A stretch of 64,000 bases of DNA from Candidatus Uhrbacteria bacterium (GTDB lineage: Bacteria; Patescibacteriota; Patescibacteriia; UBA9934), in NCBI GenBank assembly GCA_943354605.1, contig CALRCK010000001.1, positions 84,936 through 148,935 on the forward strand. The letters are read 5' to 3'. This document shows, piece by piece, positions 2,597 to 64,000 of the stretch (position 1 is its first letter; each line of letters starts with the position of its first letter). The notes below the pieces were generated by a model, which ran no database searches, was not told the DNA's origin, and saw only the letters and a program-made list of their open reading frames with translations. The position numbers were made by a program, and so were the translations under genes.

Positions 2597-2941
2597 ATGA
2601 TCCGACTTCTTGCTGCGGCAACTGCGCCCTTCAATGCTGATCCACTTTCAAATGCTGGTGCGGCGGCATACGGTGGCACCGTGCCTTCGACCACCCTTTT
2701 TTCCCTGATCAACAGCATTATCACTGCGATATTCAGCGTTCTTGGCCTCATATTCCTTTTCCTTACGCTCTACGCGGGGTATTTATGGATGACGGCGATG
2801 GGGGATTCAAAGAAAGTGACGCGAGCAAAGGATATGCTGTCGCAGGCGGTCATCGGGCTCATCATTGTTGTACTCTCGTACGGAATTTCCTTCTTCGTGG
2901 TCGATCTTATTGGGACCGCTGGAGGATTCGGCGGGATATAA
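2597..2941 (+). CDS. pilin-like small membrane protein E
   Basis: It carries the same module (LYAGYLWMTAMGDSKKVTRAKDML) between two hydrophobic helices. Confidence 0.5.
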   Translation: MIRLLAAATAPFNADPLSNAGAAAYGGTVPSTTLFSLINSIITAIFSVLGLIFLFLTLYAGYLWMTAMGDSKKVTRAKDMLSQAVIGLIIVVLSYGISFFVVDLIGTAGGFGGI

Positions 2942-2953
2942 ACGCTCGCATTT

Positions 2954-3066
2954 GGCCCATTTTCGACTCAGGCCTTCGGAAACTTCTTCAACGTACCGAG
3001 AAGTACGCCTCAGAAGCTTTCCTCGCCCTTCATCGAAACTGGTCTCAAATGAGAGCGTTTATCTCG
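2954..3066. repeat. ~112-nt repeat family R1, copy 1 (forward orientation)
   Basis: This copy aligns along its length with the reverse complements of 16151-16264 and 26825-26936. Shared blocks include GCCCATTTTCG…AACGTACCGAGAAGTACGCCTC…CGAAACTGGTCT.AAATGAGA. It contains a hairpin CGTAC-n6-GTACG. Confidence 0.6.
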
Positions 3067-3659: not shown

Positions 3660-5609
3660 TCAGTTGCAGGGGTACGAGGTGTCGTTCACCTTGTCGCACT
3701 GCGCGCGGCCGCCGTAGGCTTCGAGGGCTTCCGCCTTCTTCTCCGCCTTCGTCTTGGCTCGCGGCTGCCTGGCCGCGGGCTTCGACCCCGACGTCGCGCC
3801 GCTGCCGCTGCCAACCGCGTTTTCCGCGTAGTCGAGCACCTTGGAGCCGCCATTGCTGACGACCCCGGCCGCGCGCGTGGCGCCGTGGCTCATCGACGTT
3901 TCCGTCTCCGAGATCCACTGCGCGCCGAAGATGCGAACGACGATGAACGCCGCGAGCACCCCGGCCGTGACAACGCGCAGCGCGTTGTACCCGTACTGCA
4001 GGTTGAGGATGTCCTGCTTCTCGATCTCGGCGCCGAGCTTCCCCGCGTACGAGCCGTACACCTTCATCGTGGCGCCACGCTTCAGGTACCCGTACGCAAT
4101 GGCGAGGATCGCGATGAACGTGATGCCGCCGATGCGCCAGCTCTGCGGCGTGTTGAGCGCGAGCGCGAGGGTGAGAGGGATCCACGCGAGCACGATCGCG
4201 GAAGCGACCGTGGCACTGATGTTCACGAGGAAGTTGGTTTTGGCCAGCTCCTTCGACAGCGCGTCCACGTGTTCCTTCTCCATCCGGATGATGCTCTTGA
4301 TGAACGCCGGGATGGCGCCCACCGTCTGCCCACCCTTCTGGAGGAGGTTGATGCTCACGAAGTCGAAGGTCACGATGACGAGGAGGCTCACCCAGTAGGC
4401 GAACCAGTCCACCGTCGGCGTGAAGATCGCCGTGATCACCCACACGAGGGTGAGCGCCATCGGCGCCGCGTAGAAGCCGAGGAGCACGCCCACCACCTGC
4501 ACCGCGCCGGAGACGATCCAGCCGAAGGCCATCATGAGCGCCGAGACGCCCAAGATGGTCACGGTGGACCCCCAGGCGAAGCCCGGGAGCCAGTCCTGGT
4601 GCCAGTTTCCGATCCACAGCGTGATGATGCCGTAGATGATGAGCGCGCCGACGACTGCCACCGAACCCTTGCTCACGTTGGCGGCCGTGCGGATGGCCGC
4701 CTGCGCCTTCACGAACGCGCTGCTCGGCTGGAGGCCTGCGAACAGGTGCAGCCGGTCGAGCATGTCCATGCCGCTGGCGACGGCGTTGGTGCCCTGGTTG
4801 CGATCCGCCTGGCCGACGAGGAGGAACTCGAACGCCGGGATCATCCGGCGCACGAAGTTCTCCGCGGAGCGCCGCCAGCCCTCGAGGTTCGGGCCGCTCT
4901 GGCACCCGTGGTTCTCGAAGTCGCGGATCTCCCCCACGAACTCCACGGCGGCATCGAAGTCCGGGCCCGAGAGCCAGTTCTTGATGTCGTCCGCGTTGTC
5001 GCGGAGGGTGTTGAGGAACCCCACGCCGGCCACCGCCGCCTCGCCTTCCAGCTCGGCAACGATGTCGGTGCCGGGCGTGGCTTCGATCCGCATGAGGCGG
5101 AACATGTAGAGGAGGACGAGCTGCTGGGTGTCGGAGTACCCGGCGCCTGCGGTTGCTCCGGAGAGCGCGCGCTGGACGCGGGAGTACGACGCCACCGGAA
5201 CAGCTGCCGGGGTGGGGGTGGTTGCGGGAGAGGCGGTTGCGGGGGTGGCCATGAGGGCTCCGATTCGGGGGTTGCGGGAAAAATTCCGCCAGTGCGCGAC
5301 GACGTCGGCACGGGCTTCTTCGGTGGTCTTGCCGGTCACGCCGCGCAGCATGCGCGACGTCGGCGGGATGGTTTCCACGAATTCGCCCAGCAGGGACAGC
5401 ACACCGCCACGGTTCTGCAACCGCTGAGCGATGAACAGGATGGCCGGGCTGGCGATGTTCGGGATGCTGGCGTAGAGGTCGAAGATGACCCCCACGAATC
5501 CCTCGAGGTTGTCGGACCCACGGATGCGGGCCACGATTTCGTCGGGGAGGCGCTGCTCTCCGTCTTCGGTGAGGGCACGGATGAGGCTTTGGAAGTTGGA
5601 ATCGCTCAT
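3660..5609 (-). CDS. large polytopic membrane protein in GC-rich block 1 (~330-aa soluble N-terminal region plus ~7-8 TM helices), function unknown
   Basis: This is the long minus-strand ORF 3660..5777, with the likely start at MSDSNFQSL (ATG at 5607-5609). The sequence is coherent, with clear hydrophobic helices. The overlapping plus-strand 690-aa ORF and the other-frame minus-strand 669-aa ORF are Arg/Pro/Gly-rich artefacts of high GC. Confidence 0.5.
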   Translation of the reverse strand: MSDSNFQSLIRALTEDGEQRLPDEIVARIRGSDNLEGFVGVIFDLYASIPNIASPAILFIAQRLQNRGGVLSLLGEFVETIPPTSRMLRGVTGKTTEEARADVVAHWRNFSRNPRIGALMATPATASPATTPTPAAVPVASYSRVQRALSGATAGAGYSDTQQLVLLYMFRLMRIEATPGTDIVAELEGEAAVAGVGFLNTLRDNADDIKNWLSGPDFDAAVEFVGEIRDFENHGCQSGPNLEGWRRSAENFVRRMIPAFEFLLVGQADRNQGTNAVASGMDMLDRLHLFAGLQPSSAFVKAQAAIRTAANVSKGSVAVVGALIIYGIITLWIGNWHQDWLPGFAWGSTVTILGVSALMMAFGWIVSGAVQVVGVLLGFYAAPMALTLVWVITAIFTPTVDWFAYWVSLLVIVTFDFVSINLLQKGGQTVGAIPAFIKSIIRMEKEHVDALSKELAKTNFLVNISATVASAIVLAWIPLTLALALNTPQSWRIGGITFIAILAIAYGYLKRGATMKVYGSYAGKLGAEIEKQDILNLQYGYNALRVVTAGVLAAFIVVRIFGAQWISETETSMSHGATRAAGVVSNGGSKVLDYAENAVGSGSGATSGSKPAARQPRAKTKAEKKAEALEAYGGRAQCDKVNDTSYPCN

Positions 5610-5639
5610 GGCGAATTCTCCGGGGCTGTGATGAATTGA

Positions 5640-5830
5640 ACAATTGACGCGAGTTTTGAAAGATGCGGAAAATAAGGGGTTTCCCCAGGATTTCCGGACT
5701 GGGGAGAATAGCAGAAAAATGCAGAAAAGTAAAGGGAAAGGAGGGTTTTGGGGAAAATGAGGTTTCCCCAGGGCCACCTTTACTTTTCCCTGTTTTTCTG
5801 CTATAGTAAAGGGTTAGATTCCTTCAAAAC
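5640..5830. promoter_or_regulatory. divergent intergenic control region with direct and inverted repeats
   Basis: GGTTTCCCCAGG occurs twice (about 5678 and 5762). GCAGAAAAGTAAAGGG faces an imperfect inverted copy CCTTTACTTTTCCCTGTTTTTCTGC. The region is locally AT-rich and lies between two divergently oriented GC-rich genes. Confidence 0.3.
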
Positions 5831-5897
5831 TCGTGTACATTGTTCGATTCACCCGCCGATGCCGCAAAGGATCGGTTTCTCTCGCCAGAGGTCTCTC

Positions 5898-6602
5898 ATG
5901 CTCCTGTCCCTCATCCTGTCTTCCCTCATCTCCGCGGCCCGTGCCGAGGAGCCCACCATCAACGTCACGGTCGTGGCCCCCGCGGTCACGGACGAGGCGG
6001 CCGATGCCACCGAGATCCCGACCAGCCAGTACGGCGTGTCGCTCGTCATCGGCAGCAACTGCAGCGTCAAGGTCACCGGCAAGAACCTGTCCGCCAAAAA
6101 GGCGGGGCAGCTCGCCGGCGAGATCGAGGCGGCCAAGGGCAAGTGCATGGCCAACAAGGCCCGCCGCGACGACAAGGCTCGCGCCGACCAGGTCGCCACC
6201 GCCCGCTCGAAGTCCGAGGACACCCTCATCTCGGCCGGCGCGGATGCGGTCAAGAATGGCGGCAGCGTGGACTACAGCTCCAAGGCCAACGGCGATCTCC
6301 ACTTCGTGGCGGGTCCGGCGGCCGAGTGGAGCGCGTACGGCACCGCGGTCAGCAACGGCAACGGCTACGTCCCCGGCATGTCGGTGGGCTACGTCGATCC
6401 GCAGATGGCGATGCTCTACCGCCTTGGCGCCGGCCAGGCCGCCTTCGCCGCACACCCCGTCGTCCCCGGCGCGGTGATGCCGATGCAGCCGGCCGCACAG
6501 CCCGCGACGACCACCGACAACAGCGCCGCCCTCGGTGAGTGCCAGCAGGCGCTCAAGGCCAAGGGCAAGCTGCTCGAGTCCTGCGAGAACAGCGGCTCGT
6601 AG
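5898..6602 (+). CDS. secreted hypothetical protein (GC-rich block 1)
   Basis: ORF 5748..6602 with the probable start at MLLSLILSSLISAARA, which looks like a signal peptide. It is Ala/Gly/Lys-rich and I recognise no domain. Confidence 0.45.
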   Translation: MLLSLILSSLISAARAEEPTINVTVVAPAVTDEAADATEIPTSQYGVSLVIGSNCSVKVTGKNLSAKKAGQLAGEIEAAKGKCMANKARRDDKARADQVATARSKSEDTLISAGADAVKNGGSVDYSSKANGDLHFVAGPAAEWSAYGTAVSNGNGYVPGMSVGYVDPQMAMLYRLGAGQAAFAAHPVVPGAVMPMQPAAQPATTTDNSAALGECQQALKAKGKLLESCENSGS

Positions 6603-6748
6603 TCGTCGGTGTGTGGTGCGGTCGGTCTCGAAAGGGGCCGGCCGCCGGATGGGCCACGATACGGTCCCCATTCCTCGCGGTTTGATGGAGTCCCTCGGGA
6701 CATTATTGCCGCAAAACGTTCCTCGTCTCGAAACCTCCCGGAGTTCCC

Positions 6749-7372
6749 ATGTCCTTGTTCCTCTTCCTCGTTTCTTCCTTCGCTCTCGCCGCCGCTGGTG
6801 GCCCCATGGCCCCGCGTACGGTGGCCCATCCGTACCTCCCCAACGTGGAGCTCGCGATGGACGCGTCGAACTGCTCGGCGGACACGAACTGCGTCACCGT
6901 GGTGAACACGGGAAGCACGTTCCTCGTGCCGCAGAACAGCAACGCACCGGGCGGGATGCGCGTGGTGGACCCGGAGGGGTACACGAACGGCATCTACAAG
7001 GACGGCCTTCCGGTGTTCGTCGGCTTCACGGTCGATCCCACCACCGGCGAGACTATCCCGATGCTCAACGGCACGTTCGTGTCGGCCATCGAACCCTGCA
7101 TCCGCAGCGGCTCCTGGCCCACGACCGCGCTCCGCGTGCGCACCGCCAAGGAGATCACGGTCACCGCGGAGTCGGTGGTGTTCTACCCGGAGCCGGGCCC
7201 GGTCACCAAGGCGTTCGATGTCCAGACCGGGACGATCATCCGGTACCACCCCGGCTACGGCGAGACCGTGGGTCAGGTGGACCCGATCAAGAGCGTTCTC
7301 CGGAACGCGATCGGCGAGCCGACCACCTACGCCTGGCGCATCGCGCTGGGCAACGGTCGCTGCCAGAGCTAG
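6749..7372 (+). CDS. secreted hypothetical protein with 4 Cys (GC-rich block 1)
   Basis: The N-terminus MSLFLFLVSSFALAAAGG looks like a signal peptide. No domain recognised. Confidence 0.45.
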   Translation: MSLFLFLVSSFALAAAGGPMAPRTVAHPYLPNVELAMDASNCSADTNCVTVVNTGSTFLVPQNSNAPGGMRVVDPEGYTNGIYKDGLPVFVGFTVDPTTGETIPMLNGTFVSAIEPCIRSGSWPTTALRVRTAKEITVTAESVVFYPEPGPVTKAFDVQTGTIIRYHPGYGETVGQVDPIKSVLRNAIGEPTTYAWRIALGNGRCQS

Positions 7373-7494: not shown

Positions 7495-7578
7495 CAGTCA
7501 TGTTGAGCGCAGCGAAACATCTCCGCAGGGAGTGCTGGTAACCTACGGGAGATTCTTCACTTCGTTCAGAATGACTGA
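7495..7578. repeat. palindromic hairpin repeat (family R2), copy A
   Basis: GTCATGTTGAGCGCAGCGAAACATCTCC … GGGAGATTCTTCACTTCGTTCAGAATGAC form imperfect inverted arms. It sits between convergent gene ends. Confidence 0.55.
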
Positions 7579-7585
7579 TCGGATT

Positions 7586-8917
7586 CTATACGTGAGTTTT
7601 GCGCGATACCAACATTCCTACCAAACAGAATGCGGTGAGTATCACTAAATCATTTTTGAAAAATGGGACATCGACCAAGCCATGAATCGTCATTGTGAGT
7701 ATTGCGGCAGCGAAGGCAAGGACCAGCGCGTCGTCTTTGCGTCGCCATGCGGTTCGCGTAAGAAGGAACGCTCCAGTGATCAGGCCAATAAGGCCAATAA
7801 GACCCATTTCTGACCACACATTCAGCATGATGTTGTGCGGATACTGAAAAATTTCGTAGAACGTCGCGTCGTGATACGGCGCAAGCGCTGCAGGGTAGCC
7901 GTTCAGGCCGGCCCCAAGGAACGGGCGATCTGCAAGCATGGTGAGCGTTTCACTCCATTGCGCGCGGCGAACAAGGCCGGACGAATCGTGGAGTGCAATT
8001 TTTTGAATGATCGACGGCGCGAAGAGCGACACCGCACATGCTCCGGTAATGGTTGCGGCGATGATGGCGTATTTGATTCGTCCAGCAATCGGCGCGAGGA
8101 GTCCGACGATCACGAGCGCAACGGGGATTGCGACAAGAGCGGCTTCTGTTTTTGCTGCAACAATTCCGCCGAGCATGAGGAAGATTGTAATGATTTCAGA
8201 TACACCCAAGCCCCCTCCAACTCCCCCATAAATGGCGGAGAGAAGCCCGGTGATTCCTCTCCCCCCATTTATGGGGGGAGTCGGAGGGGGGCTTTTACGC
8301 ACGGAGAGGATTCGATTGGAAAGCTGCACCATCGCCATCGTCACGATTGGCGCAATAAAGAGTCCGACAGCATTTGGATAATCATACAGCGATGTTGCGC
8401 GGTTCTCGATGGCCCAAGCGTCCGGAATACCAACGTGGGTGAGGATCTGCAGAATAGCGAGTATACCAACGGCGGTTGCCGATGCAATGAGCACGTTGAT
8501 CATACGTTCGACGTCGTCACGATCAGTCATAACCGCTCTGACCACGAACGCGAGGAGCATTGGTTCAATGATGTACGCCTTCAGAATGCCGAGCGCAGAA
8601 AGCGTGTCTGGTGCGATGATGGTAGAAATTATTCCGGCGATGACGACGAGTGCCATCGGAATCCGATACCAGCCAAACGATTCCCAAATCGTAGAGACGG
8701 CCCGGCGGGCCGTTTCCGACCGTAATCGAATCACCGCATTCGCGATCGTAATTAAAAGGAATCCTTCAAGCAGCGTGGAAGGAATCGGTCCAATAGTGAA
8801 TCGAACGAGATACGTCGGCAGGAGCGCGAAGAGGAGAACAATGCCGAGTTTTTGATTTCGCCACGAAAGAACAGCAAAGGCGGCGATTACGGCGGTGACG
8901 AGGATGGGGAAGATCAT
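7586..8917 (-). CDS. polytopic membrane protein, O-antigen ligase/polymerase-like (Wzy_C-type) candidate
   Basis: It is 443 aa with about 10-12 hydrophobic helices and sits adjacent to the Wzx-like flippase. The family assignment is by architecture only. Confidence 0.4.
   Translation of the reverse strand: MIFPILVTAVIAAFAVLSWRNQKLGIVLLFALLPTYLVRFTIGPIPSTLLEGFLLITIANAVIRLRSETARRAVSTIWESFGWYRIPMALVVIAGIISTIIAPDTLSALGILKAYIIEPMLLAFVVRAVMTDRDDVERMINVLIASATAVGILAILQILTHVGIPDAWAIENRATSLYDYPNAVGLFIAPIVTMAMVQLSNRILSVRKSPPPTPPINGGRGITGLLSAIYGGVGGGLGVSEIITIFLMLGGIVAAKTEAALVAIPVALVIVGLLAPIAGRIKYAIIAATITGACAVSLFAPSIIQKIALHDSSGLVRRAQWSETLTMLADRPFLGAGLNGYPAALAPYHDATFYEIFQYPHNIMLNVWSEMGLIGLIGLITGAFLLTRTAWRRKDDALVLAFAAAILTMTIHGLVDVPFFKNDLVILTAFCLVGMLVSRKTHV
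8208..8294. repeat. 87-nt near-perfect GC-rich palindrome embedded in-frame in the ligase-like CDS
   Basis: The arms are AAGCCCCCTCCAACTCCCCCATAAATGG and CCATTTATGGGGGGAGTCGGAGGGGGGCTT. The right arm (8257-8294) matches ileS 62597-62634 at 37 of 38 positions. In the protein it encodes …SPPPTPPINGGRGITGLLSAIYGGVGGGLG…. Confidence 0.6.
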
Positions 8918-8935: not shown

Positions 8936-9018
8936 TCGTGTCATTCTGAGCGAAGCGAAGAATCTTCGTCGTGACCAACACGTAACCCACGAGAGATTCT
9001 TCGCTTCGCTCAGAATGA
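8936..9018. repeat. palindromic hairpin repeat (family R2), copy B
   Basis: GTCATTCTGAGCGAAGCGAAGAATCTTCG … CGAGAGATTCTTCGCTTCGCTCAGAATGAC is a near-perfect inverted repeat, 3' of the flippase gene. Confidence 0.6.
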
Positions 9019-9027
9019 CTGAAGAAG

Positions 9028-14866: not shown

Positions 14867-16048
14867 ATGGCAAACCCCAAGCCCCCTCCCGATCCCACTC
14901 GTGCCACGATTCTCGGCGAGGATCCGCCGCCTTCCGCCGTTCCTTCGGCAATCCCTATGCCGCCGAACGACCGTCCGGTGCGTCCGGTTCTGCGCCCGGT
15001 CGGTCCGTCCATCACGCCCGGTACCGCCGCATTCCCGCCGGAGATGATCGTGGACCTCTCGCGTCGCACGATGGTTCCCGAAGAGGAGTTCGTCGGCGCG
15101 CCGCCGATTCCCGCAGCGTTGGTGAACGCGCGTACGCTGGGCCTTGGCCCGGCGAAGGTCACCAACGTTCCGCCCCAGCCCCCGCCCGTCCTGCAGAAGG
15201 TTGCGCTCCGCATCACCACGCGGAACGTGCCCGATGCCAAGGCGGAGTCGTGGATCCAATCCCCGACGCCGCTGGGCAAGCCGGTGGCGGTCAACAGTCG
15301 CCTCGTTGCGGTGTTCATCGCTGCCCGGGTGACGAACTTCTTCCCAGGTGCGGAGCCGGGGACGATGATCGTGGAAGTGGATCTCGCGTTCGCCCCGATG
15401 ACGCCCGGCAAGGTGGCGGAGGACTGGGCGCTGCGCTACGCACAGAACGACGCCGAGCTTCAGAAGTCGCTCACCGCGGCCCTGTACATGGCGTTCTCCC
15501 GGCTTCCGCTCTGGCCGGGACTCATCGTTCGCTTCGTTGGTGGGCCGCCAATGACGCAGGCTGATGCGGATGCGAATCGCTACCACGTCTGGATCGACGA
15601 AGCTCGCTCGCCCACGCGGGTGGAGATCGACGACCGGTTCGTGGAAGCGGCTCGAGAGCAGGCGGAGAGTGCGTACCTCAAGGCGGAAGGCGGGCTCTTC
15701 ACCAGGCTGACGCTCATGTGGTGGGAGTGGAAGAACCCGCTTCGGCTCCGCGACTATCGCATGGGAAAACTCCTCGCCGAGCGCGACGATCTGTTGGAGC
15801 TCGACAAGAAGGAGCTGGAGGCACTCAAGACGGCACTTGCTGCGTACGCTGGCCCGGTCATCAGCAGCCAGAGCGCTGTCGCCTTCGGTGACGATCTCGA
15901 TGTGAGGGCGATGATGGAAGCCAAGGGTCGGCAGGGCGTGCGACCGACGGAGATCGAGCGGCCGGAGCCCCCGCGTCGGCCGACGTACCTGGAGCACGAG
16001 CCGCTCCCGGACGGTGCGATGGTTCCGCTCCCGGACGGCGAGGGCTAA
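14867..16048 (+). CDS. Pro-rich hypothetical protein (GC-rich block 2)
   Basis: The ORF is 393 aa, is visibly GC-rich and has a Pro-rich N-terminus. A sigma70-like promoter (TTGACT-17-TGAAAT) lies at about 14798-14830. Confidence 0.4.
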   Translation: MANPKPPPDPTRATILGEDPPPSAVPSAIPMPPNDRPVRPVLRPVGPSITPGTAAFPPEMIVDLSRRTMVPEEEFVGAPPIPAALVNARTLGLGPAKVTNVPPQPPPVLQKVALRITTRNVPDAKAESWIQSPTPLGKPVAVNSRLVAVFIAARVTNFFPGAEPGTMIVEVDLAFAPMTPGKVAEDWALRYAQNDAELQKSLTAALYMAFSRLPLWPGLIVRFVGGPPMTQADADANRYHVWIDEARSPTRVEIDDRFVEAAREQAESAYLKAEGGLFTRLTLMWWEWKNPLRLRDYRMGKLLAERDDLLELDKKELEALKTALAAYAGPVISSQSAVAFGDDLDVRAMMEAKGRQGVRPTEIERPEPPRRPTYLEHEPLPDGAMVPLPDGEG

Positions 16049-16150: not shown

Positions 16151-16264
16151 AGATAAGAACTTTCTCATTTCAGACCAGTTTCGGTGCGCAAGGAGCAAAG
16201 TTCGCGAGGCGTACTTCTCGGTACGTTGAGCGAATTTGCGACGCAGCAAGCCGAAAATGGGCGA
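16151..16264. repeat. repeat family R1, copy 2 (reverse orientation), immediately 5' of tRNA-Leu
   Basis: Its reverse complement aligns with 2954-3066, including the AACGTACCGAGAAGTACGCCTC hairpin block. Confidence 0.6.
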
Positions 16265-16283
16265 AATGACGAAGTTCTTGTGA

Positions 16284-16369
16284 GCCGAGATGGCGGAATG
16301 GTATACGCAAGACACTTAAAATGTCTGGATCGAAAGGTCATGCGGGTTCGACTCCCGCTCTTGGCACCA
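16284..16369 (+). tRNA. tRNA-Leu (anticodon TAA)
   Basis: The cloverleaf was folded by hand. The acceptor is GCCGAGA/TCTTGGC, the anticodon stem AGACA/TGTCT with loop CTTAAAA, a long variable arm, a T-loop TTCGACT, and an encoded CCA. Confidence 0.8.
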
Positions 16370-22962: not shown

Positions 22963-23054
22963 AAGTTTTACAAAACCAAAGCGCGGTCGCTCTCACAGGA
23001 TTGCTCCCGGAGTGCGACCGCGCCGTGCGTCTGCGGTGCGTTCAGCCTGACGTG

Positions 23055-23768
23055 TCAGATGCTCTTCGCGAAGTCCGTGAAGATCTCGCGGTACGCATCG
23101 ACCAGCGCCTGGCCGCCCTCCTGCTCCCGACGGAGCCGCCACTGCAGGGCGAGCGGATCGGTGAACCAGGCGGCGTGCGCTGCGGTGCCGAACGCCGCGT
23201 TCGCTGCCGTATAGGCCGCGTGGTCCGCGTCGTTCCAGTGCATCATCGCACCGTCGAACGTACTCGACGCCATCATCGCCTTGTCTGCCGCCGCTTCCGC
23301 CAGCCAGAGCTTGCGAAGTTCGGGCGGGACGGTCATCGTGAAGTCCTGGATGAGGAGGCCCAGGTACGTGCGGATCTCGACGAGCTTCTGCCGGTCTGCG
23401 AGGAGCATGGAGCCGAGCACGAACGGTTTCAGCTTGCGGTACGTCGCGCGCACGTTGGCCGGGTTCGAGAGGAACTTCCGCTCCTTCTCGCGCATGGCGT
23501 AGTCTGCGCCGTCGGCGTTCGGGTTGTCCTCGAGCATGTACACGTTGTACACGAGCATGTTGCTCGTTTCCGTGAGCGTGCCATGGCTGCACAGCGGCGA
23601 CCACCGCTCCTTGAATTCGGGGATTTGTGCAGCGACGGGGTCCGTGTCGCATCCGATGTTGAGCGGCAGACCGTGTCCGGTCATGAACGCATCGGCGACG
23701 TGCTCGGCGAGCTGCTCTTCGCGGGTGGGTGCGGTGGAGAAGGCGGAGGTGAGGAGGAGAATGAGCAT
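23055..23768 (-). CDS. secreted hypothetical protein (GC-rich block 3)
   Basis: The start is MLILLLTSAFSTA, which looks like a signal peptide. It is visibly GC-rich and I recognise no domain. Confidence 0.4.
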   Translation of the reverse strand: MLILLLTSAFSTAPTREEQLAEHVADAFMTGHGLPLNIGCDTDPVAAQIPEFKERWSPLCSHGTLTETSNMLVYNVYMLEDNPNADGADYAMREKERKFLSNPANVRATYRKLKPFVLGSMLLADRQKLVEIRTYLGLLIQDFTMTVPPELRKLWLAEAAADKAMMASSTFDGAMMHWNDADHAAYTAANAAFGTAAHAAWFTDPLALQWRLRREQEGGQALVDAYREIFTDFAKSI

Positions 23769-23865
23769 GAGTGGCCCTGGGTTGCACAAAGAAAATAGCA
23801 AATATAAGCGAAAAAGTCAACTCTTTCGTTTGCGAAACGATTAATCTGCCGTATAGTGTTCCGGT

Positions 23866-24459
23866 ATGCGCGTTATTCTTGTTCACGGCTATAAGGCCAC
23901 ACCAAAAAGCGGATTTTTTCCGTGGCTTGAGCGTGAATTGCGGGCAAGAGACTTCGACGTGGTCATTCCGGAGCTGCCGAATCCCGAGGAGCCGGATCGC
24001 GATGTTTGGACGGAAACGCTTGTGAAAACGTGCGCGCCGCTGAAGGAGACTGATATCATTGTCGGCCATTCCCTCGGCGGTGCTGCGGCGTTGCGTATGC
24101 TCGAGGCTGCCGAGGCTCGATCGACCCCACACGCCATGGTGATGATCTCGACGCCATGGATGATCAAGGATGACAGGTTCCGTGGGTTCTTTATGTCCGA
24201 GCTCGATTTTGAAGTGCTCATGTGGCGTGCAAGTAAATTCGTCGTCATTCATGCGCAGAACGACCCAACCATTCCCGTGGACCACGCAAAGCGCTACGCA
24301 TCGGTCTTCCATGCAAAGCTCGTTACCCCAGAAACCGGGGAACATTTCCGAGGAGAAGAATACCCAATTATTTTGCAATCGATTTTAGAGGTTGCCGCAG
24401 AACCGATCGTTTACGAGCCAGGAAAATCACTTGCAGACGATTACGCAGAGATTCGATAA
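23866..24459 (+). CDS. alpha/beta serine hydrolase (RBBP9/YdeN-like family), paralogue
   Basis: It has the motif IIVGHSLGG and the same architecture as 22396..22962. Confidence 0.55.
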   Translation: MRVILVHGYKATPKSGFFPWLERELRARDFDVVIPELPNPEEPDRDVWTETLVKTCAPLKETDIIVGHSLGGAAALRMLEAAEARSTPHAMVMISTPWMIKDDRFRGFFMSELDFEVLMWRASKFVVIHAQNDPTIPVDHAKRYASVFHAKLVTPETGEHFRGEEYPIILQSILEVAAEPIVYEPGKSLADDYAEIR

Positions 24460-24611: not shown

Positions 24612-25199
24612 ATGTTCACCGGCATCGTCAAAGGCCTTGGATCGGTAGCTGCGATTGATCGTCGCGAAGGTTTTTTGGATATGACGATCGATGTTGGGAG
24701 CGTTTTATCGATTCCCGAGATTGGTGCGAGTGTGGCGGTTGATGGTGTGTGTTTAACGGTCACCGAGATCGACGGAACGAATTTGAAGTTCTCGGTGATG
24801 GAAGAAACGCTTGAGAAGACGACAATCGGCGATCGGAATGTTGGCGATCGCGTTGGGCTTGAACAACCGCTAAAGATGGGCGATGAACTTGGCGGCCACA
24901 TGGTGCTCGGCCACGTTGATGGCGTTGGGACGATCGTAAAAAAGGACATCGACGGCGAGAACTGCTGGGTGACGATTACGGCGCCGAAGTTTTTTACAAA
25001 ATATATTGTGCAGAAAGGGAGTATCGCGATCGACGGTGTCAGCCTCACGGTTTGCGATCCTGCGATGAAGGATGGGGGAGTCGAATTCTCCGTCTCGCTT
25101 TTGCCACTAACGCTTTCGTTGACGACGCTCGGTTTTAAGAATGTTGGTGATCGCGTGAACCTGGAGGCTGATTACGTACTGAAGGCGATGATAAAATAG
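24612..25199 (+). CDS. ribE: riboflavin synthase alpha chain
   Basis: It has the MFTGIVKGLG start, the two lumazine-binding repeats (…VDGVCLTV… and …IDGVSLTV…), and is 195 aa. A terminator AATCGAAAACGATTTTTT lies at 25201-25221. Confidence 0.85.
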   Translation: MFTGIVKGLGSVAAIDRREGFLDMTIDVGSVLSIPEIGASVAVDGVCLTVTEIDGTNLKFSVMEETLEKTTIGDRNVGDRVGLEQPLKMGDELGGHMVLGHVDGVGTIVKKDIDGENCWVTITAPKFFTKYIVQKGSIAIDGVSLTVCDPAMKDGGVEFSVSLLPLTLSLTTLGFKNVGDRVNLEADYVLKAMIK

Positions 25200-26824: not shown

Positions 26825-26936
26825 CGCACATATTTGGTGATAGTTTCGGTGCGCAACGAGCAAAGCTTTTGAAACGTACTTCATGTGTACGTTGAAAAAG
26901 TTTGCGAAGGTGCAAGCCGAAAATAGCCCAAATAGG
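26825..26936. repeat. repeat family R1, copy 3 (reverse orientation), immediately 5' of 23S rRNA
   Basis: Its reverse complement aligns with copies 1 and 2 (GGCTATTTTCGGCTTGC…AACGTACACATGAAGTACG…TTGCGCACCGAAACT). Confidence 0.55.
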
Positions 26937-26964: not shown

Positions 26965-29995
<3,031 letters not shown>

Positions 29996-30071
29996 ATTCA
30001 CTGATTGTTCTCGGAAACGAGTAACAATACGTTCTTCACTATTTGCAGAAACTGATCGAAAGGATCCTCCG

Positions 30072-30182
30072 TCTTGGTGGCACTTCCGGCAGGGCAACAC
30101 CCGTTCCCATCCCGAACACGGTCGTTAAGCCTGCACGGGCCGATGGTAGTCAAGGTGGCGAGAGTAGGTGGCCGCCAGGACA
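30072..30182 (+). rRNA. rrf: 5S ribosomal RNA
   Basis: …CCGTTCCCATCCCGAACACGG…GCCGATGGTAGT…GAGAGTAGGTGGCCGCCAGG is a typical 5S core. The ends are approximate. Confidence 0.85.
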
Positions 30183-45845: not shown

Positions 45846-46433
45846 TTACAGTCCGCGATACACGTACCACGGTACGAGTTTTTCGCCGTTGATCGTCTGG
45901 ATTGGTTCAATGTTTGGCAATGGCCAGGCTTCGATGGCGACGAGGGCATGGGGCTTCAGCTCGCGTTTCAGCGTCGCGATGAACTTTGGGTATGCCTTTT
46001 GCATGAGGAATGCCACCACAACGTCGGCATCAGAAAAGTGCTTTGTGAAAAAGTTTCCAAATCGGAGCGAAACATTTTTGTATCGTACGGGATGCCGAAG
46101 CTTTATCATCGCGCCGATGAACAACGGGAGGAGCGAGACGTCGTAGCCAATGCATTTGGCATTCGGATAGCGACTGGCGAATTCGAAGAGAATCGACCCA
46201 GAGCCGCAGCCGAGATCGTAAAGGGTCACCGATTTCTTCCCCTCCTTTCGAAGGCGCTCGACGAGCCTGTCGTTGGGCGAGGAGAGTGAGGGGTTGGGGG
46301 GAGGTATGACGAGATTATCAACCAGCAACTTCCGTTGCGCCGACAAGGTTGGCACCCACGGAGCCGCAAGAAGCGAGCCCCAGGCCATGGTGCCCACAAT
46401 GACGAGAAGAAAGAACAGGAGAAGGGGTGGCAT
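45846..46433 (-). CDS. class I SAM-dependent methyltransferase with an N-terminal TM helix
   Basis: It has the motif LYDLGCGSGSILFEFA. The start was chosen at MPPLLLFF. Confidence 0.55.
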   Translation of the reverse strand: MPPLLLFFLLVIVGTMAWGSLLAAPWVPTLSAQRKLLVDNLVIPPPNPSLSSPNDRLVERLRKEGKKSVTLYDLGCGSGSILFEFASRYPNAKCIGYDVSLLPLFIGAMIKLRHPVRYKNVSLRFGNFFTKHFSDADVVVAFLMQKAYPKFIATLKRELKPHALVAIEAWPLPNIEPIQTINGEKLVPWYVYRGL

Positions 46434-50244: not shown

Positions 50245-51342
50245 TTACTTTTTGGTGACTTTTGCTGCGCCGCCAAACAGGCCGGAAAGGTCGAGCTTCT
50301 TTGCCTCGACCGGCCGTTCCTGTTTTTCCACGTACGCCTGCAACTCTTGCAGACCCGTGGCAGTGGCGGGGAACGCAGTCTTCCAGCATCCATCAACGAC
50401 GAGCCGCACGCCGCTGTAATCGAGATCGGTTTTTACGCCGAGCGCGACGAGACGAGCAACGAACGGAGGGGCGACGGTTTGGAACAGATTCCGCATGGAC
50501 TCCTGCTCCTTCTCGGCCGCCTTCTTCGCGACAAGCGCCTTGAGTTTCGCGATCCCATCGGCGTCGAAGCTGAAGTATTCGTCGTAGAACCCACGACGTG
50601 CAACAAAGCACGTTTCTCCCAAATGGTGCTCCACACCGAGCGCGATAAGCTGAGAGACTAGGGTCGGAAGCTCGGCGAGGAACGCGACTTTCTGCCTTTC
50701 GGCTTCTTCTGCATCTCGCCGAACCTTGTTCGGGTAGTCCACCGCTGCGAGTCGCTCAATCTCCGCCGCCTTCTTTGCCTCGATGAGGCTGGCATTGGAG
50801 GTGTTAGGCGCCGCACCGGTGAGCCACACCTCGAACTCCTCCGTGGGCATCTCAACAATGCCGCGCCACGAGAAGATTTCGACAAGGCCGGTGCTGCACC
50901 GTCGTCCCGTTTCGGCATAGACGAATCCATTCGGGTGGGTGAGGCGAACGACAAGATGCGCCGTGGGGCAACAGTGTATGTTGCTCTCCTCTCGGACGAG
51001 GATCTCGGCACCGACGCCGATGATTCGGCTGTACCCACCGCGGAACCCACCGCGGAGCGTGAGGAGAAGGATCTGCTCATCTTCGTGGAGCGCGCAAGGC
51101 GTCACGAGGAGCGTTCCCTTCTCCTTGCTCTTGGTGAGTTTGCTCGGATTCGGATCGAACCCGAGGAAGGTGGCGGTGACGGGGAGCTGGAAGTCGGGCT
51201 GATACTCCCAGCGTGCGGCCAGAAAGCCGCGATGACGAGCTCCCTCGCCGCGGAAGGCGGGGAAGGGTTCCTTCGTCCAGCCCCACGGCGTGGGGCGGAA
51301 CGAGTTGGTTTTTTCCCGGGAGTAAAGGTTTTTTAAGGACAA
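50245..51342 (-). CDS. hypothetical protein (GC-rich block 7)
   Basis: The ORF is 365 aa and visibly GC-rich. No domain recognised. Confidence 0.4.
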   Translation of the reverse strand: MSLKNLYSREKTNSFRPTPWGWTKEPFPAFRGEGARHRGFLAARWEYQPDFQLPVTATFLGFDPNPSKLTKSKEKGTLLVTPCALHEDEQILLLTLRGGFRGGYSRIIGVGAEILVREESNIHCCPTAHLVVRLTHPNGFVYAETGRRCSTGLVEIFSWRGIVEMPTEEFEVWLTGAAPNTSNASLIEAKKAAEIERLAAVDYPNKVRRDAEEAERQKVAFLAELPTLVSQLIALGVEHHLGETCFVARRGFYDEYFSFDADGIAKLKALVAKKAAEKEQESMRNLFQTVAPPFVARLVALGVKTDLDYSGVRLVVDGCWKTAFPATATGLQELQAYVEKQERPVEAKKLDLSGLFGGAAKVTKK

Positions 51343-51540
51343 GGCTGCTCCTGATGTTGAATTTCGAGGAACGGATTCCCTCGATTGGCTTCTTAAATCT
51401 CTTCCAACAAGCGAAAGATATTTCAGAAGCCGATCGAGGAGCTCTTCAACGCGCAGTGCGTGGCGAAGAAGAGCTCAGACTCGAGTGCTTTTCCCAGATC
51501 TCGATCCCGCTGGTACGGGGGTGTGACGAACCGTCGGGCG

Positions 51541-52461
51541 CTAGCCGACGAGCGCGAGCTTCGCCATGCGGTACACGCCCGCGAGCGTTGCCGCACCGGC
51601 GATCCACCTGCCGGGGTGGCAGAAGATCGCGCCCTCCACCCCCGTGAGGGTGGCGAGATCAGCGCCGCGGACGCCGGCCCAGCTGGCCGGAAGGGCGAGA
51701 CGCTGGGCGAAGCTCCCGCGCTTGGGCGGGACGCTGCGGATGTACCAGTACGAGCCGTCCTCGCTGGGGTAGACGACGAACTTCGCCGCCTTCGACGCGC
51801 TGGCCTCGTCCGCCCAGTCGAAGTTGAAGGTCTCGAACTGGACGACCTTCTTGCCCTTCGCGTTGGCCAGCGCCACCTTCACCTCGCGCCGGGCCGTGAT
51901 GATCGCGGCGGCGTTCCGAACGGCGTCCCGGATGATGCCCTCGGCAACCTCGACGGCGCGCCCGAAGGCGGCGTTGTAGTCACGGTCGGCATCGTTCCAC
52001 GCGGGGTTCATCGCCCCGAGGATGTGGCTGACGGTGTACGGGGCGGCGCCCTCGAACCCGCGCTTCTTGCCGGTGATCCGCTGGCCGTTGTCGGTCGCGT
52101 CCACGGGGATCACGAGCGTCCGATCGACCTCAGCGGCCACCTCGATGTCCCCGTTGCAGATCTGCGCACCGTAGTGCTTCCAGATGAGCCCGAACGCGGA
52201 GAGGAAGATGGGGGAATCGGTGCGGGTGCCGGCGCGGCCGGACTGGTGGTGGTCGAAGCGGCCGTTCAGCGGGTTGTAGACCGCGCCGACGTCCACGACG
52301 ATGTCGCAGGAGGCGAGGATCGCGGGGTCGCGGGTGCGGATGACATCGCAGTTCGCGATCAGCCGCAGAGCGGCGACCGCGAGGACATCGTCTGCGTGGA
52401 ACTCTCCGTTGTGGGTGGCAAGAGTGATGGAGGAGGAGAGGACGAGGGCAGGGATGGACAT
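51541..52461 (-). CDS. MYG1/UPF0160-family metal-dependent hydrolase (GC-rich block 7)
   Basis: The N-terminal ATHNGEFHADDVLAV motif and later DHHQ are characteristic of MYG1. Confidence 0.6.
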   Translation of the reverse strand: MSIPALVLSSSITLATHNGEFHADDVLAVAALRLIANCDVIRTRDPAILASCDIVVDVGAVYNPLNGRFDHHQSGRAGTRTDSPIFLSAFGLIWKHYGAQICNGDIEVAAEVDRTLVIPVDATDNGQRITGKKRGFEGAAPYTVSHILGAMNPAWNDADRDYNAAFGRAVEVAEGIIRDAVRNAAAIITARREVKVALANAKGKKVVQFETFNFDWADEASASKAAKFVVYPSEDGSYWYIRSVPPKRGSFAQRLALPASWAGVRGADLATLTGVEGAIFCHPGRWIAGAATLAGVYRMAKLALVG

Positions 52462-52707
52462 GAGAGCTCCTGTCTTTCGACAAGTGAGTAACGTGACGGT
52501 TGTTGTCTCGCCGGGGTTCCGGTTCGATCAACGTGCGTCAGGTTCCTCGACGCATTGCTCAAGTGTTAAGCAATATGTCGAAGATCCCACCGCTGCTTGT
52601 GCAGGGCTGCGGTGGGTTTCGAGTGCATGCCGGATTGAACTCCGGCGGGTCAGTACGTTTTTCGGAAGGTTGTACTAGCCTTCGTAGTGGTGTCGGCGCC
52701 GAGGCTT

Positions 52708-53055
52708 CTAGCCCTCGGACACCGTCCAGAGGCCGAACCGGAACTTCGCCCCGTCGATCTCGGCCTGCGTGTACTCGTGGCGCCCCTCGAGCCGGGGCAG
52801 GCCGACGACACCCATGACCAGCAACGAGTCGCCGGGCTTCAGGTTGATCGAGGCCGCCTTCGTGGGGATCTCGCAGAAGATGCCGAACCGGTTGTTCATC
52901 GCGGCGATCGTCAGCGAGTGCGACGGGTTCAGGCACAGGGCACAGTCACCCTCGATGACTGCCTTGGCCTCCGCGGGCGTGAGCTCGCGGCGGGAGACGT
53001 TGGCGGTGGCAGGGAACATGTTGTCAGCGAGGCCGAAGCCGAAGTACGTGGTCAT
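52708..53055 (-). CDS. small hypothetical protein (GC-rich block 7)
   Basis: The ORF is 115 aa and begins MTTYFGFGLADNMFP. No confident family. Confidence 0.3.
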   Translation of the reverse strand: MTTYFGFGLADNMFPATANVSRRELTPAEAKAVIEGDCALCLNPSHSLTIAAMNNRFGIFCEIPTKAASINLKPGDSLLVMGVVGLPRLEGRHEYTQAEIDGAKFRFGLWTVSEG

Positions 53056-61812: not shown

Positions 61813-64000
61813 ATGCAAAGTCATTCCGATCAAGAAAAGGAACTTTTAGAATCTTGGGAGAAGAATCGCATTTTTGAGCGCTCGGTGGAGGAGCGGCCGG
61901 AAGATAAACGATACACCTTTTACGACGGCCCGCCGTTTGCGACGGGTTTGCCACATTACGGCAGTATTTTACCGTCGGTGATTAAGGACGTGGTTCCTCG
62001 GTACTGGACCATGAAGGGTTATCGCGTGGAGCGAGTGTGGGGCTGGGATTGTCATGGAGTTCCGATTGAAAACATGATCGAGCAGGAGCTTGGACTGAAG
62101 GGCGGAAAGAAGGGAATTGAGGAGCTCGGTATCGATAAGTTCAATGCTGCATGTCGCGCAGCAATTCTGCGTTTCGATAAAGAATGGGAAGTCATCATCA
62201 AGCGCGTTGCACGGTGGGTTGATTTCAAACACTCGTACAAAACCATGGACAACACGTTCATGGAGAGTGTCTGGTGGGGGTTCAAGGAGTTGTACGAAAA
62301 GAAGCTGGTTCGCGAAGGCAAACGCGTGATTTTGTATTGTCCACGCTGCGCAACGCCACTCAGCAACTTTGAGATTGCGATGGATAACTCGTACAAAGAT
62401 GTTGAAGACAATTCGCTGTACGTAAAGTTTAAGCGTAAGGGAACGGACAATGAATATTTTCTTGCTTGGACGACTACTCCGTGGACGCTCCCGGGAAACG
62501 TCGGCCTCGCCGTTGATCGCGATGCGGAATACGTGAAAGTCCAGGTTGGTGATGAATTCGTCTGGATGGCGAAGCAGCGCATGGAGGCGATAACTTCTCT
62601 CCCCACATTTATGGGGGGAGTCGGAGGGGGGCTTGATTCTGGATCGATCGTCGAAACCGTGAAGGGCTCCGATCTTCTCGGTATCGAATATGGACCGCTC
62701 TATTCGTACATGCCGCTTGATGGCAAGAAGGCACATTACATTCTTCCAGCAACATTCGTGTCGCTCGACGACGGAACCGGAATTGTGCACACCGCGGCTG
62801 TTTTTGGCGAAGACGACTACAAACTTGCACAAGAGTTCGATCTTCCGTGCGTTTCAACGCTCGATGATCAAGGGAAGTTTCTCGATTTCGTCGAGCCGTT
62901 GAAAGGTGTGTTCTTCAAGAAAGCAGAGCAATGGATTATTGACGATCTTCAAAAAAGAAACTTAGTTTGTGCAGTAACGAAGTTTGTTCACTCATATCCA
63001 ATGTGCTATCGCTGCTCCACACCGCTCTACTACAACGCGGTGCCGGCGTGGTTTATTGATGTGCAATCGCTCAAGCCACAGCTCATCGCGCAGAATGAGA
63101 ATATCAATTGGTATCCAGAGCATTTGAAGAAAGGACGATTCGGAAAAGGTCTCGAGACCGCACCAGATTGGAACATCTCACGTTCACGATATTGGGGAAC
63201 GCCGATGCCGGTGTGGGTGGCGGAAGACGGCACGCGCCGTGTTGTTGGTTCCTTCAACGAGCTGAAAACATGGGCCGTTGATCTGTCGCGAGTAGAATCG
63301 CTTACAGATTTCCATCGTGAGTTTATTGATCCGATCGATGTGTGGGTGGATGACGCGAGGACGAAAAAAGGGAAGCGCATTCCGGAGGTGTTCGATTGTT
63401 GGGTGGAATCTGGATCAATGCCATTTGCGGCGATCCATGCGCCGTTTGAGAATAAGGAGAAGTTCGCCGCGGCATTCCCGGCTCAATTCATCACCGAATA
63501 CATCGCCCAGACTCGAGCGTGGTTCTATGTGATGCACGTGATGTCTGTGGCGCTGTTTGGACGAAATGCGTACGAAAATGTTCTGACGACGGGAACAATT
63601 CTTGCTGACGACGGGCAGAAGATGAGTAAGTCAAAAAAGAATTACCCGGATCCAACAATCTTGATTGAAAAACACAGTGCCGATGCATTGCGGTTCTATT
63701 TGATGTCGCAACCGCTGGTAAACGGTGAGAATTTGAATTTCAACGAATCTGGCGTTGATGAGGTTTCCAAGAAGTTCATCACCATCATGAAGAACGTGGT
63801 GTCGTTCTATGGGTTGTACAAAGAGCACGACGACGGGCGAACGCCGTCCAACGTGCATGTGCTCGACCAATGGATCATGGCACGCATCGCACAAACACTT
63901 GGAGAAGAAACGACAGCCATCGAACGATACGATCTTTCCGACGCAGCCCGATCGCTCCAATCATTCGTGACCGATCTTTCCACGTGGTATGTTCGCCGAT
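61813..64000 (+). CDS. ileS: isoleucine--tRNA ligase (3' end beyond the window)
   Basis: It has PPFATGLPHYG (HIGH-class motif region), WGWDCHGVP and the KMSKS motif (KMSKSKKN). The frame is open to the window end. Confidence 0.9.
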   Translation, partial: MQSHSDQEKELLESWEKNRIFERSVEERPEDKRYTFYDGPPFATGLPHYGSILPSVIKDVVPRYWTMKGYRVERVWGWDCHGVPIENMIEQELGLKGGKKGIEELGIDKFNAACRAAILRFDKEWEVIIKRVARWVDFKHSYKTMDNTFMESVWWGFKELYEKKLVREGKRVILYCPRCATPLSNFEIAMDNSYKDVEDNSLYVKFKRKGTDNEYFLAWTTTPWTLPGNVGLAVDRDAEYVKVQVGDEFVWMAKQRMEAITSLPTFMGGVGGGLDSGSIVETVKGSDLLGIEYGPLYSYMPLDGKKAHYILPATFVSLDDGTGIVHTAAVFGEDDYKLAQEFDLPCVSTLDDQGKFLDFVEPLKGVFFKKAEQWIIDDLQKRNLVCAVTKFVHSYPMCYRCSTPLYYNAVPAWFIDVQSLKPQLIAQNENINWYPEHLKKGRFGKGLETAPDWNISRSRYWGTPMPVWVAEDGTRRVVGSFNELKTWAVDLSRVESLTDFHREFIDPIDVWVDDARTKKGKRIPEVFDCWVESGSMPFAAIHAPFENKEKFAAAFPAQFITEYIAQTRAWFYVMHVMSVALFGRNAYENVLTTGTILADDGQKMSKSKKNYPDPTILIEKHSADALRFYLMSQPLVNGENLNFNESGVDEVSKKFITIMKNVVSFYGLYKEHDDGRTPSNVHVLDQWIMARIAQTLGEETTAIERYDLSDAARSLQSFVTDLSTWYVRR
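62597..62634. repeat. 38-nt GC-rich repeat unit inserted in-frame in ileS (single arm)
   Basis: CTCTCCCCACATTTATGGGGGGAGTCGGAGGGGGGCTT matches 8257-8294 at 37 of 38 positions. In the protein it encodes …SLPTFMGGVGGGLDSG…. Confidence 0.6.

Follow-up and report, generated by a model that had tools for sequence, protein, structure and literature searches.

The 64,000-nt stretch of Candidatus Uhrbacteria DNA analysed here (contig CALRCK010000001.1, positions 84,936 to 148,935 of the forward strand; referred to throughout as the window) contains an imperfect palindrome of 87 nt at 8208-8294, within the gene of a Wzy_C membrane protein, and a 38-nt part of it returns within ileS, the isoleucyl-tRNA synthetase (IleRS) gene. 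The question raised by this locus is what kind of DNA can be read in frame inside two unrelated genes, and how it came to be there. Taken together, our results make it probable that the palindrome and a 39-mer in ileS are a doublet and a singlet of a small non-autonomous selfish repeat of Candidatus Uhrbacteria, and this repeat appears to derive from the ends of a cassette.

Architecture of the unit and covariation of its arms

The arms of the palindrome are AAGCCCCCTCCAACTCCCCCATAAATGG (left, 28 nt) and CCATTTATGGGGGGAGTCGGAGGGGGGCTT (right, 30 nt). The right arm differs from the reverse complement of the left by one mismatch and two 1-nt differences in run length (G5 versus G6), which makes the term near-perfect, used in an earlier sequence-only reading of this DNA, a fair description. 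RNA folding of 8208-8294 gave -70 kcal/mol, compared with -46.1 +/- 3.6 for shuffled sequences (z = -6.6), and none of 200 shuffles was as stable. The open reading frame (ORF) at 7586-8917 on the minus strand, whose product is a Wzy_C protein of 443 amino acids (aa; Pfam E = 4e-17), stays open across the palindrome and reads ...RKSPPPTPPINGGRGITGLLSAIYGGVGGGLGVSE... there. The in-frame recurrence of one 38-nt arm in ileS, reported by the same reading, was confirmed by blastn and by frame reading: the 38-mer at 8257-8294 matches 62597-62634 at 37 of 38 bases (E = 2e-14; 0 expected in shuffles), and the second copy is read in the ileS frame as ...AITSLPTFMGGVGGGLDSGS... (host domain tRNA-synt_1, E = 5e-127), with one mismatch in its C-rich arm (CTCCCCAC).

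What repeats is smaller than the palindrome. The dispersed GC-rich mini-element proposed by the sequence-only reading was upheld as such; the repeating unit proved to be 33-39 nt long, and the 87-nt palindrome is a doublet of inverted units (doublets measure 78-94 nt). The window holds three units in total, namely the Wzy doublet and the ileS singlet. Its sequence from 5' to 3' is (CT)CTCCCCC(C)-ATTTAT-GGGGG(G)AG-TYG-GAGGGGG(G)-C(TT), of which CTCCCCCCATTTATGGGGGGAGTCGGAGGGGGG is an example. The pyrimidine arm (Y) comes first, followed by a variable loop and by the purine arm that pairs with Y (R1); after a spacer of 3 nt comes another purine arm (R2), which is the mirror image of R1 and not its complement. 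In the window, the units and their host genes are arranged as follows.

8208-8294, no strand assigned: doublet of two inverted units plus linker, 87 nt or 29 codons, read from the minus strand as SPPPTPPINGGRGITGLLSAIYGGVGGGL in the Wzy_C gene
8208-8242, minus strand: left unit, G5 type
8234-8240: Y arm of the left unit, CTCCGCC, with one stem mismatch
8228-8233: loop of the left unit, ATTTAT
8221-8227: purine arm R1 of the left unit, GGGGGAG
8218-8220: spacer of the left unit, TTG
8211-8217: mirror arm R2 of the left unit, GAGGGGG, then CTT
8243-8256, no strand assigned: linker AAGCCCGGTGATTC joining both Wzy units, with the gene-strand reading GAATCACCGGGCTT
8257-8294, plus strand: right unit, G6 type, beginning with CT
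8259-8266: Y arm of the right unit, CTCCCCCC
8267-8272: loop of the right unit, ATTTAT
8273-8280: purine arm R1 of the right unit, GGGGGGAG
8281-8283: spacer of the right unit, TCG
8284-8291: mirror arm R2 of the right unit, GAGGGGGG, then CTT
62596-62634, plus strand: ileS singlet, a G6 unit of 39 nt or 13 codons, SLPTFMGGVGGGL
7586-8917, minus strand: host gene 1, O-antigen-ligase-like (Wzy_C) membrane protein of 443 aa, with the insert between helices 181-208 and 239-254
61816-64000, plus strand: host gene 2, ileS, continuing past the window end; the full protein (P0001) has 986 aa

Across the 82 units that were tabulated, Y spans 7-8 nt, the loop mostly 6 nt and the spacer mostly 3 nt, and the arms occur in four variants.

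Y CTCCCCC, R1 GGGGGAG, R2 GAGGGGG: 62 of 82 units
Y CCCCTCC, R1 GGAGGGG, R2 GGGGAGG: 12 of 82 units
Y TCCCCCC, R1 GGGGGGA, R2 AGGGGGG: 4 of 82 units
Y CCTCCCC, R1 GGGGAGG, R2 GGAGGG(G/A)

Across the four variants, the position of the A shifts jointly in all three arms, and a hairpin followed by an R2 tail of mismatched type occurs in none of the tabulated units. The unit also comes in G5 and G6 versions, in which both purine runs change length together (41/41 units); all ten G6 units additionally have an 8-nt C-rich arm, for a net change of +3 nt. The loops are diverse (ATTTAT, TGCAAA, TTTTCAA, TTATGAA and others), and the arms are kept. A metagenome scan for more arm variants returned 24 loci; roughly half of these were purine-rich sequences that matched by chance and had no hairpin, and one arm variant only (L056) was added. 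This layout is the geometry of a class II purine-motif intrastrand triplex, and we infer from the covariation that the unit may form such a triplex.

Further copies, sought across genomes, were found in several independent Uhrbacteria assemblies, many of them in housekeeping genes confirmed by Pfam. A pattern scan with one genome per species returned 37 loci, mostly from four Candidatus Uhrbacteria/Patescibacteria metagenome-assembled genomes (MAGs): CALRGY (14 loci), CALRHV (9 loci), JBBTSM (6 loci) and CAIKHN (3 loci). At least five Uhrbacteria/Patescibacteria genomes contain the unit many times; the loci fetched under a strict pattern number 3-14 in each genome. The copies share a flank, CTCTCCCCCA, that lies outside the search pattern, and CTCTCCCCC(C)A stands upstream in all but two matches. 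DNA identity between the window and the CALRHV loci is 77-90%. L028, a small contig labelled Gammaproteobacteria, is syntenic with the window and is therefore a mis-binned contig of the Candidate Phyla Radiation (CPR), not a contamination of the window. In three Bacteroidales/Prevotella matches (L002, L003 and L013), arms and CTT tail are the same and the loop has 5 nt, TTTAT; their sequences suggest that the unit family, or a close relative, may also occur outside the CPR. Within this group, one copy lies in frame after the signal peptide of a GH31-like protein, and another is located inside a 791-aa ORF without a Pfam match. Viral contigs gave no match to the unit pattern, a search of the whole window against Rfam at gathering thresholds returned rRNA and tRNA only and nothing at the element, and a literature search with the exact unit string found no paper.

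In-frame residence and turnover of sites

A single unit is free of stop codons in five of the six frames, and a doublet in three of the six. The peptide encoded by the C-rich arm is rich in Pro, and that of the G-rich arm in Gly, contrary to the sequence-only reading, in which either strand would give a similar G-rich peptide. Most copies are spanned by long ORFs, and in-frame copies occur in about 20 different genes. Hosts confirmed by Pfam domains that flank or span the insert include UvrB, MiaA, the CCA-adding enzyme, SMC, RarA, RibE and KsgA; RadA and an HhH-GPD glycosylase were confirmed in two genomes each, and a PEP-utilising enzyme, a GT4 glycosyltransferase, a methyltransferase and a PKD-domain protein were likewise confirmed. 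Additional in-frame copies were found in FemAB, at a second Wzy site, in the Wzy loop of P0139 and at a second ileS site, and intergenic copies also exist, such as those upstream of topA, rsmI and lgt. The second IleRS site is an insertion hot spot near residue 800 (about 795-815 of P0001, past the window end; L071 12356), where unit-type peptides occur in P0011 (PLTKGELEG), P0012 (PSHGGVGGG) and P0013 (PLNKGESEG) and are missing from other relatives; in the P0001 model, the predicted local distance difference test (pLDDT) score of this region is below 50. As the inserts are made up of whole codons, contain no stops and occupy loops, they are read through in frame and tolerated, and they are presumably translated as Gly/Pro/Ser-rich loop extensions.

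Within the window, a methyltransferase gene at about 46220-46300 has a longer, different insert with C and G runs (CCCCTCC...GGAGAGTGAGGGGTTGGGGGGAGG). It occupies the exact site of a standard main unit in the CALRHV orthologue (L017) and could be a nested or replaced element.

Close orthologues of both IleRS and Wzy lack the peptide, in agreement with the lineage-specific insertion that the sequence-only reading had supposed. The ileS singlet site aligns with the variable part of the CP1/editing insertion of IleRS, where P0001-P0006 and P0013 have the insert, and P0007, P0009-P0012 and every more distant homologue are without it. In the DNA, the site is filled in the window, L038 and L043, holds a loop variant in L041, L042 and L071, and is empty in L039/L040. 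The empty allele L039 (P0007) differs from the window by exactly 39 nt (13 codons) with colinear flanks, and its empty site is the junction of GCGATGAAG with GTTGTT. Filled relatives combine the same arms with other loops (ATTCAT, TTATGAA, TTTTCAA, TGAACAA), and the ileS copy in L044 is decayed. In a neighbour-joining tree, the filled ileS state is patchy and therefore reflects either repeated insertion at one site or precise loss, between which the tree cannot decide. The Wzy doublet was found only in the window and, at the same site, in CALRHV (L045); the orthologues P0123-P0131, which are 68-75% identical, are without it, and other Wzy relatives have different small inserts in the same loop. 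At ribE, L015 (3180-3260) and L028 are filled, and the window is empty (ATGAAGGATGGG, 25060-25085).

Structure prediction bore out the suspected loop location for both window inserts. In the AlphaFold2 model of Wzy (pLDDT 90.2), the blocks of the insert, at residues of about 207-240, score 56-67; in that of IleRS (pLDDT 84.3), the insert at aa 262-274 is a coil with a pLDDT of 64-71. Both inserts are thus modelled as low-confidence coils between well-predicted elements. Sites also appear to turn over. The two copies in the window genome are 97% identical, and several positions differ in the orthologous ileS copy of a genome with 90% identity in IleRS. For the second Wzy unit, the type is main in the window and sister in CALRHV, with about 7 changes in 33 nt, and the first Wzy unit is nearly unchanged between the two. 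Read from these sequences, such turnover is indicative either of hot spots where units re-insert or of gene conversion among copies.

The surroundings of the Wzy gene contain other repeated features. A second, unrelated palindromic family (GTCATTCTGAGCGAAGCGAAGAATC; peptides ILSEAKNL and FFASLRMT) is present as a doublet at 8940-9019, at 7575 and 24586 (both on the minus strand) and at position 7077 of L038. A perfect inverted pair of this family, with 26-nt arms, fills the intergenic gap between the Wzy and flippase genes, and another copy stands right after the Wzy stop codon; with copies at both of its ends, the Wzy gene is therefore flanked on both sides by this family. Downstream of the Wzy locus, L045, L046 and L072 have arrays of five to six T4SS_pilin-domain genes, which are conserved among these Uhrbacteria.

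The DUF559 cassette and competing explanations

One unit-bearing host ORF encodes a DUF559 protein (PF04480, E = 5e-34) and continues through a unit at either end. In 662 kb of DNA, tblastn found DUF559 homologues at five non-redundant places (L016, L027, L023 (=L057), L048 and L035), representing five genomes and three genomic contexts, with proteins 49-73% identical. All five genes are bracketed by units: upstream stands a main unit in reverse complement, and downstream a unit of either the sister or the main type. The resulting cassette of about 0.48 kb has its units tails-out, as doublets do. At its two ends, the window doublet (AAGCCCCC(C)TCCGACTCCCCC(C)ATAAATGGGGG(G)AGAG ... CTCTCC(G)CCATTTATGGGGGAGTTGGAGGGGGCTT) matches the cassette ends of L023/L048, from which it differs in run lengths and by about two substitutions; the terminal AAG...CTT is shared. 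The Wzy linker reading GAATCACCGGGCTT is similar to two other sequences, the linker GAATCACTGAGTGG in the doublet of L045 and GAATCAGTGAGATT at the inner right end of the L016 cassette. Eight of the 12 non-redundant doublets are main plus sister pairs, as in the cassettes L016, L027 and L035; the units of every doublet point tails-out and are joined by 18-33 nt of linker. There are about five singlets per doublet (58 versus 12) in a sample that is biased by locus fetching. Further DUF559 database proteins have unit-encoded termini, many DUF559 matches lie on contigs of 0.5-2 kb, and a solved relative of DUF559 is 3hrl. DUF559 has been classed with Vsr and the EDxHD homing endonuclease I-Bth0305I (PMC3424549, PMC9403480), and an enrichment of DUF559 genes among those with flanking inverted repeats has been reported (PMC9881135). 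A candidate transposase between the inverted units of L029, which lie 1.5 kb apart, was rejected; the genes there are KsgA and an epimerase.

A similar neighbourhood was found in Escherichia coli K-12 (L073, NC_000913.3, 7204-7430). The 3' end of the DUF559 gene ycjD is a decayed BoxC-like hairpin, and about 170 nt downstream, on the same strand, a canonical BoxC/TMECO repeat follows a partial duplicate of the ycjD 3' end. By our own estimate, based on 23 TMECO copies, 4.6 Mb and a 400-nt window, the number of such adjacencies expected by chance is about 0.002.

Because inverted units bracket the DUF559 gene in the geometry of a doublet, the doublet looks like a derivative of the kind known as a miniature inverted-repeat transposable element (MITE). 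The units would accordingly stem from a cassette, about 0.48 kb long and carrying the gene of a DUF559 (Vsr/EDxHD homing-endonuclease-like) nuclease, of which they form the terminal inverted repeats; doublets, the Wzy one included, would be internal-deletion (MITE-like) derivatives of this cassette, and singlets its solo ends. Spread may proceed via structured single-stranded DNA ends with the DUF559 nuclease supplied in trans, and copies at a site may later be replaced or homogenised through recombination with other copies. A wider proposal, which we regard as possible but advance only tentatively, is that intrastrand-triplex repeats, comprising the Uhrbacteria units and by extension BoxC/PIT of E. 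coli, are the terminal repeats of an unrecognised class of tiny mobile elements. Its autonomous form would encode a DUF559 nuclease, codon-sized and stop-free miniature derivatives would colonise surface loops of essential proteins in the minimal genomes of the CPR, and the triplex would be the form recognised in mobilisation. If this is true, the three-way arm covariation would be the first comparative-sequence evidence of a DNA triple helix under in vivo selection. Independently of this proposal, covariation of the off-centre A can be used to test the importance of DNA triplexes in vivo.

Several points weigh against these proposals. No DUF559 gene lies within the window, and neither a transposition event nor a within-population insertion polymorphism was observed. 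Target-site duplications, which the sequence-only reading had envisaged, were looked for and not found at ileS, the one clean filled-versus-empty site. The likeness between linker and cassette consists of short motifs only, the link between DUF559 and BoxC in E. coli is one locus, and a TATGA(TC) repeat near three cassettes is not adjacent to their ends. The history could also have run in reverse, with a DUF559 gene invading a doublet. Since loci were fetched for containing units, copy numbers and genic fractions are biased. With regard to the triplex, the mirror rule is backed by about four independent variants only, the concerted G5-to-G6 change (+3 nt) could also reflect preservation of the frame, and triplexes of the purine-motif kind are not formed by RNA (Holder et al. 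2015, PMC4666352).

The same observations can be read in other ways. Hairpins and mirror arms remain intact at orthologous sites where loops and flanks diverge, and copies persist among species whose host proteins are 84-90% identical, as might be expected of a repeat kept for a DNA-level function in the host (a replication or transcription pause, a recombination hot spot or a nucleoid-protein site), with genic copies under selection. Different variants at orthologous sites are compatible with recombination hot spots, and TMECO loci have been associated with local genomic instability in E. coli (PMC4666352). However, recent copying or gene conversion can explain the conservation of the arms, the host genes share no function, presence is patchy even in close relatives, and some copies are decayed (L044, L071); PIT elements, moreover, had no promoter, terminator or in vivo polymerase-blocking effect in earlier work (PMC4666352). 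On this balance, a selected host function seems unlikely.

A short hairpin of 33-39 nt is also what a repetitive extragenic palindromic (REP) sequence, or its hairpin-forming doublet (REPIN), would look like if moved by a REP-associated tyrosine transposase (RAYT) or by an HUH tyrosine transposase of the IS200/IS605 type, with DUF559 being incidental. The missing target duplication and the apparently seamless empty allele P0007 among filled relatives fit IS200/IS605-style transposition. The tetranucleotide GTAG is a hallmark of REPs; no conserved GTAG is visible in the tabulated copies, for which no dedicated search was made. The inverted doublets do resemble REPINs (PMC3116915), whereas singlets exceed doublets by about 5:1 and REPs are mostly doublets; the copies are mostly genic, and REPs are extragenic by definition. 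The gene found between inverted units is DUF559, and tblastn with the TnpA proteins of IS200 and IS608 gave no match in 662 kb, which is a weak test. We therefore consider this origin very unlikely. The last alternative, that no mobile repeat is involved and the segments are ancestral protein sequence, slippage-made Gly/Pro linkers or an assembly or binning artefact, draws on the slippage-prone nature of C and G runs and on the matches in MAGs labelled Gammaproteobacteria. Against it, the window copies in unrelated genes match at 37 of 38 positions, including those outside the runs, and the same unit with its flanks occurs at more than 40 places in independent assemblies, orthologous sites among them; of the contigs labelled Gammaproteobacteria (L028, L020 and L034), the one checked (L028) is mis-binned CPR. 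Empty orthologous sites exist. Orthologues without the peptide indicate that it is not ancestral, and the further copies that it is not an artefact, so neither of the ways in which the sequence-only reading might have failed came about; the dispersed copies and the empty ileS and Wzy orthologues refute this alternative, to which we assign a negligible probability. A selfish repeat, apparently derived from cassette ends, is the explanation we prefer.

Other features of the window were recorded alongside the element. The sequence-only reading had linked the element to a GC mosaic, and this link found no support. Blocks at 4000-7000, 15000-16000, 23000-24000 and 51000-53000 have 62-68% GC against a background of about 51%, and they contain no unit; all three units of the window lie at the two reported sites, and the element therefore does not explain the kilobase-scale GC-rich blocks. 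A repeat of about 110 nt (GTTTCGGTGCGCAA.GAGCAAAG...CGTACTTC..GTACGTTGA...GCAAGCCGAAAAT), with about 80% identity, occurs at many Uhrbacteria loci. Its window copies lie at about 2940-3060, at 16155-16279 (before tRNA-Leu at 16284) and at 26831-26934 (before 23S rRNA at 26965), so that two of the three are immediately upstream of RNA genes; it could be a promoter/leader module or a third repeat family. The 23S and 5S rRNA genes occupy 26965-30180, with no 16S gene anywhere in the window. The 23S match measures 3035 nt against a model of 2925 positions, and this gene may carry an insertion.

Relation to known repeats and mobile elements

CPR genomes are about 1 Mb in size and are assumed to be streamlined. 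Selfish DNA that is read inside IleRS, UvrB, RadA, SMC and other core proteins of the CPR offers a parallel to Rickettsia, and no description of such Rickettsia-like in-frame selfish DNA in CPR core proteins was found in the literature searched. Potentially new are the translated triplex-motif repeats in CPR core genes and the association with DUF559. The units also have practical consequences: they create spurious hypothetical-protein peptides as well as indels in marker genes, and they probably break metagenome assemblies, given the many DUF559 matches on such short contigs.

Rickettsia palindromic elements (RPEs), to which the sequence-only reading had likened the element, are AT-rich. To our knowledge, they are confined to Rickettsia, and no sequence similarity to the Uhrbacteria unit is expected. 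The likeness holds for behaviour: both are palindromic selfish DNA that stands in frame, in reduced genomes, within numerous unrelated genes that are often essential, both add a peptide where the fold tolerates it, and the presence of both varies among species. It does not extend to size and build. RPEs measure about 150 bp (review PMC10969869, summarising Ogata et al. 2000), in contrast to the 33-39 nt of Uhrbacteria units and 78-94 nt of doublets; they are without the build of a hairpin plus mirror arm, and no associated nuclease gene is known for them.

REPs, bacterial interspersed mosaic elements (BIMEs) and REPINs share with the Uhrbacteria repeat the form of short GC-rich hairpins, present as singlets or as inverted doublets that fold into long hairpins (PMC3116915), as well as a single-copy, repeat-flanked gene for the presumed mobilising enzyme. 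The flanked gene differs, being here that of a DUF559 nuclease of the PD-(D/E)XK fold and not that of a Y1 HUH transposase; Uhrbacteria copies are, in addition, mostly genic, with singlets predominating in a biased sample. The pairing of a short non-coding doublet with a longer, enzyme-encoding element that has the same inverted ends recalls MITEs, without a DDE transposase or a clear target-site duplication. A relation to EDxHD/Vsr-like homing endonucleases of the I-Bth0305I family is indicated by the placement of DUF559 in a clade with a proven homing endonuclease (PMC3424549, PMC9403480). The DUF559 cassettes differ in lying outside introns and inteins, and their nuclease activity and target are predicted.

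BoxC/PIT/TMECO repeats have been known since the 1990s, and we know of no established means by which they spread. PIT (potential intrastrand triplex) repeats were reportedly described by Hoyne et al. in 2000. The recurrent DUF559 cassette with the same ends, together with ycjD beside BoxC, makes the question of BoxC spread directly testable. The E. coli consensus is CCCTCNCCC-N3-6-GGGNGAGGG-N3-GGGNGAGGG, with 9-nt arms, and TMECO has been shown to form a triplex in vitro by circular dichroism and nuclear magnetic resonance; in E. coli K-12, it is reported to be intergenic in every case, each of its inverted pairs consists of one type A and one type B copy, and a mobility gene was not found in its vicinity (PMC4666352). 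The Uhrbacteria unit shares the succession of a C-rich arm, a 3-6-nt loop, a G-rich arm, a 3-nt loop and a second G-rich arm, with conserved arms, variable loops and tens of dispersed copies on either strand. Both repeats form close inverted pairs of two subtypes (type A plus type B there, main plus sister in 8 of 12 doublets here), and both have no transposase found nearby and an adjoining DUF559 gene (ycjD in E. coli). They differ in arm length and sequence, as the Uhrbacteria arms of 7-8 nt (CTCCCCC) do not meet the E. coli consensus with its arms of 9-10 nt (CCCTCNCCC), and in their hosts, the Uhrbacteria unit belonging to a CPR phylum. Most characterised Uhrbacteria copies are genic and in frame, whereas E. 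coli copies are intergenic; the off-centre A of the Uhrbacteria arms provides a natural three-way covariation; and the triplex, shown in vitro for TMECO, is predicted for the Uhrbacteria unit. Judged by its sequence, the unit belongs architecturally with the BoxC/PIT intrastrand-triplex repeats, as a different sequence family.

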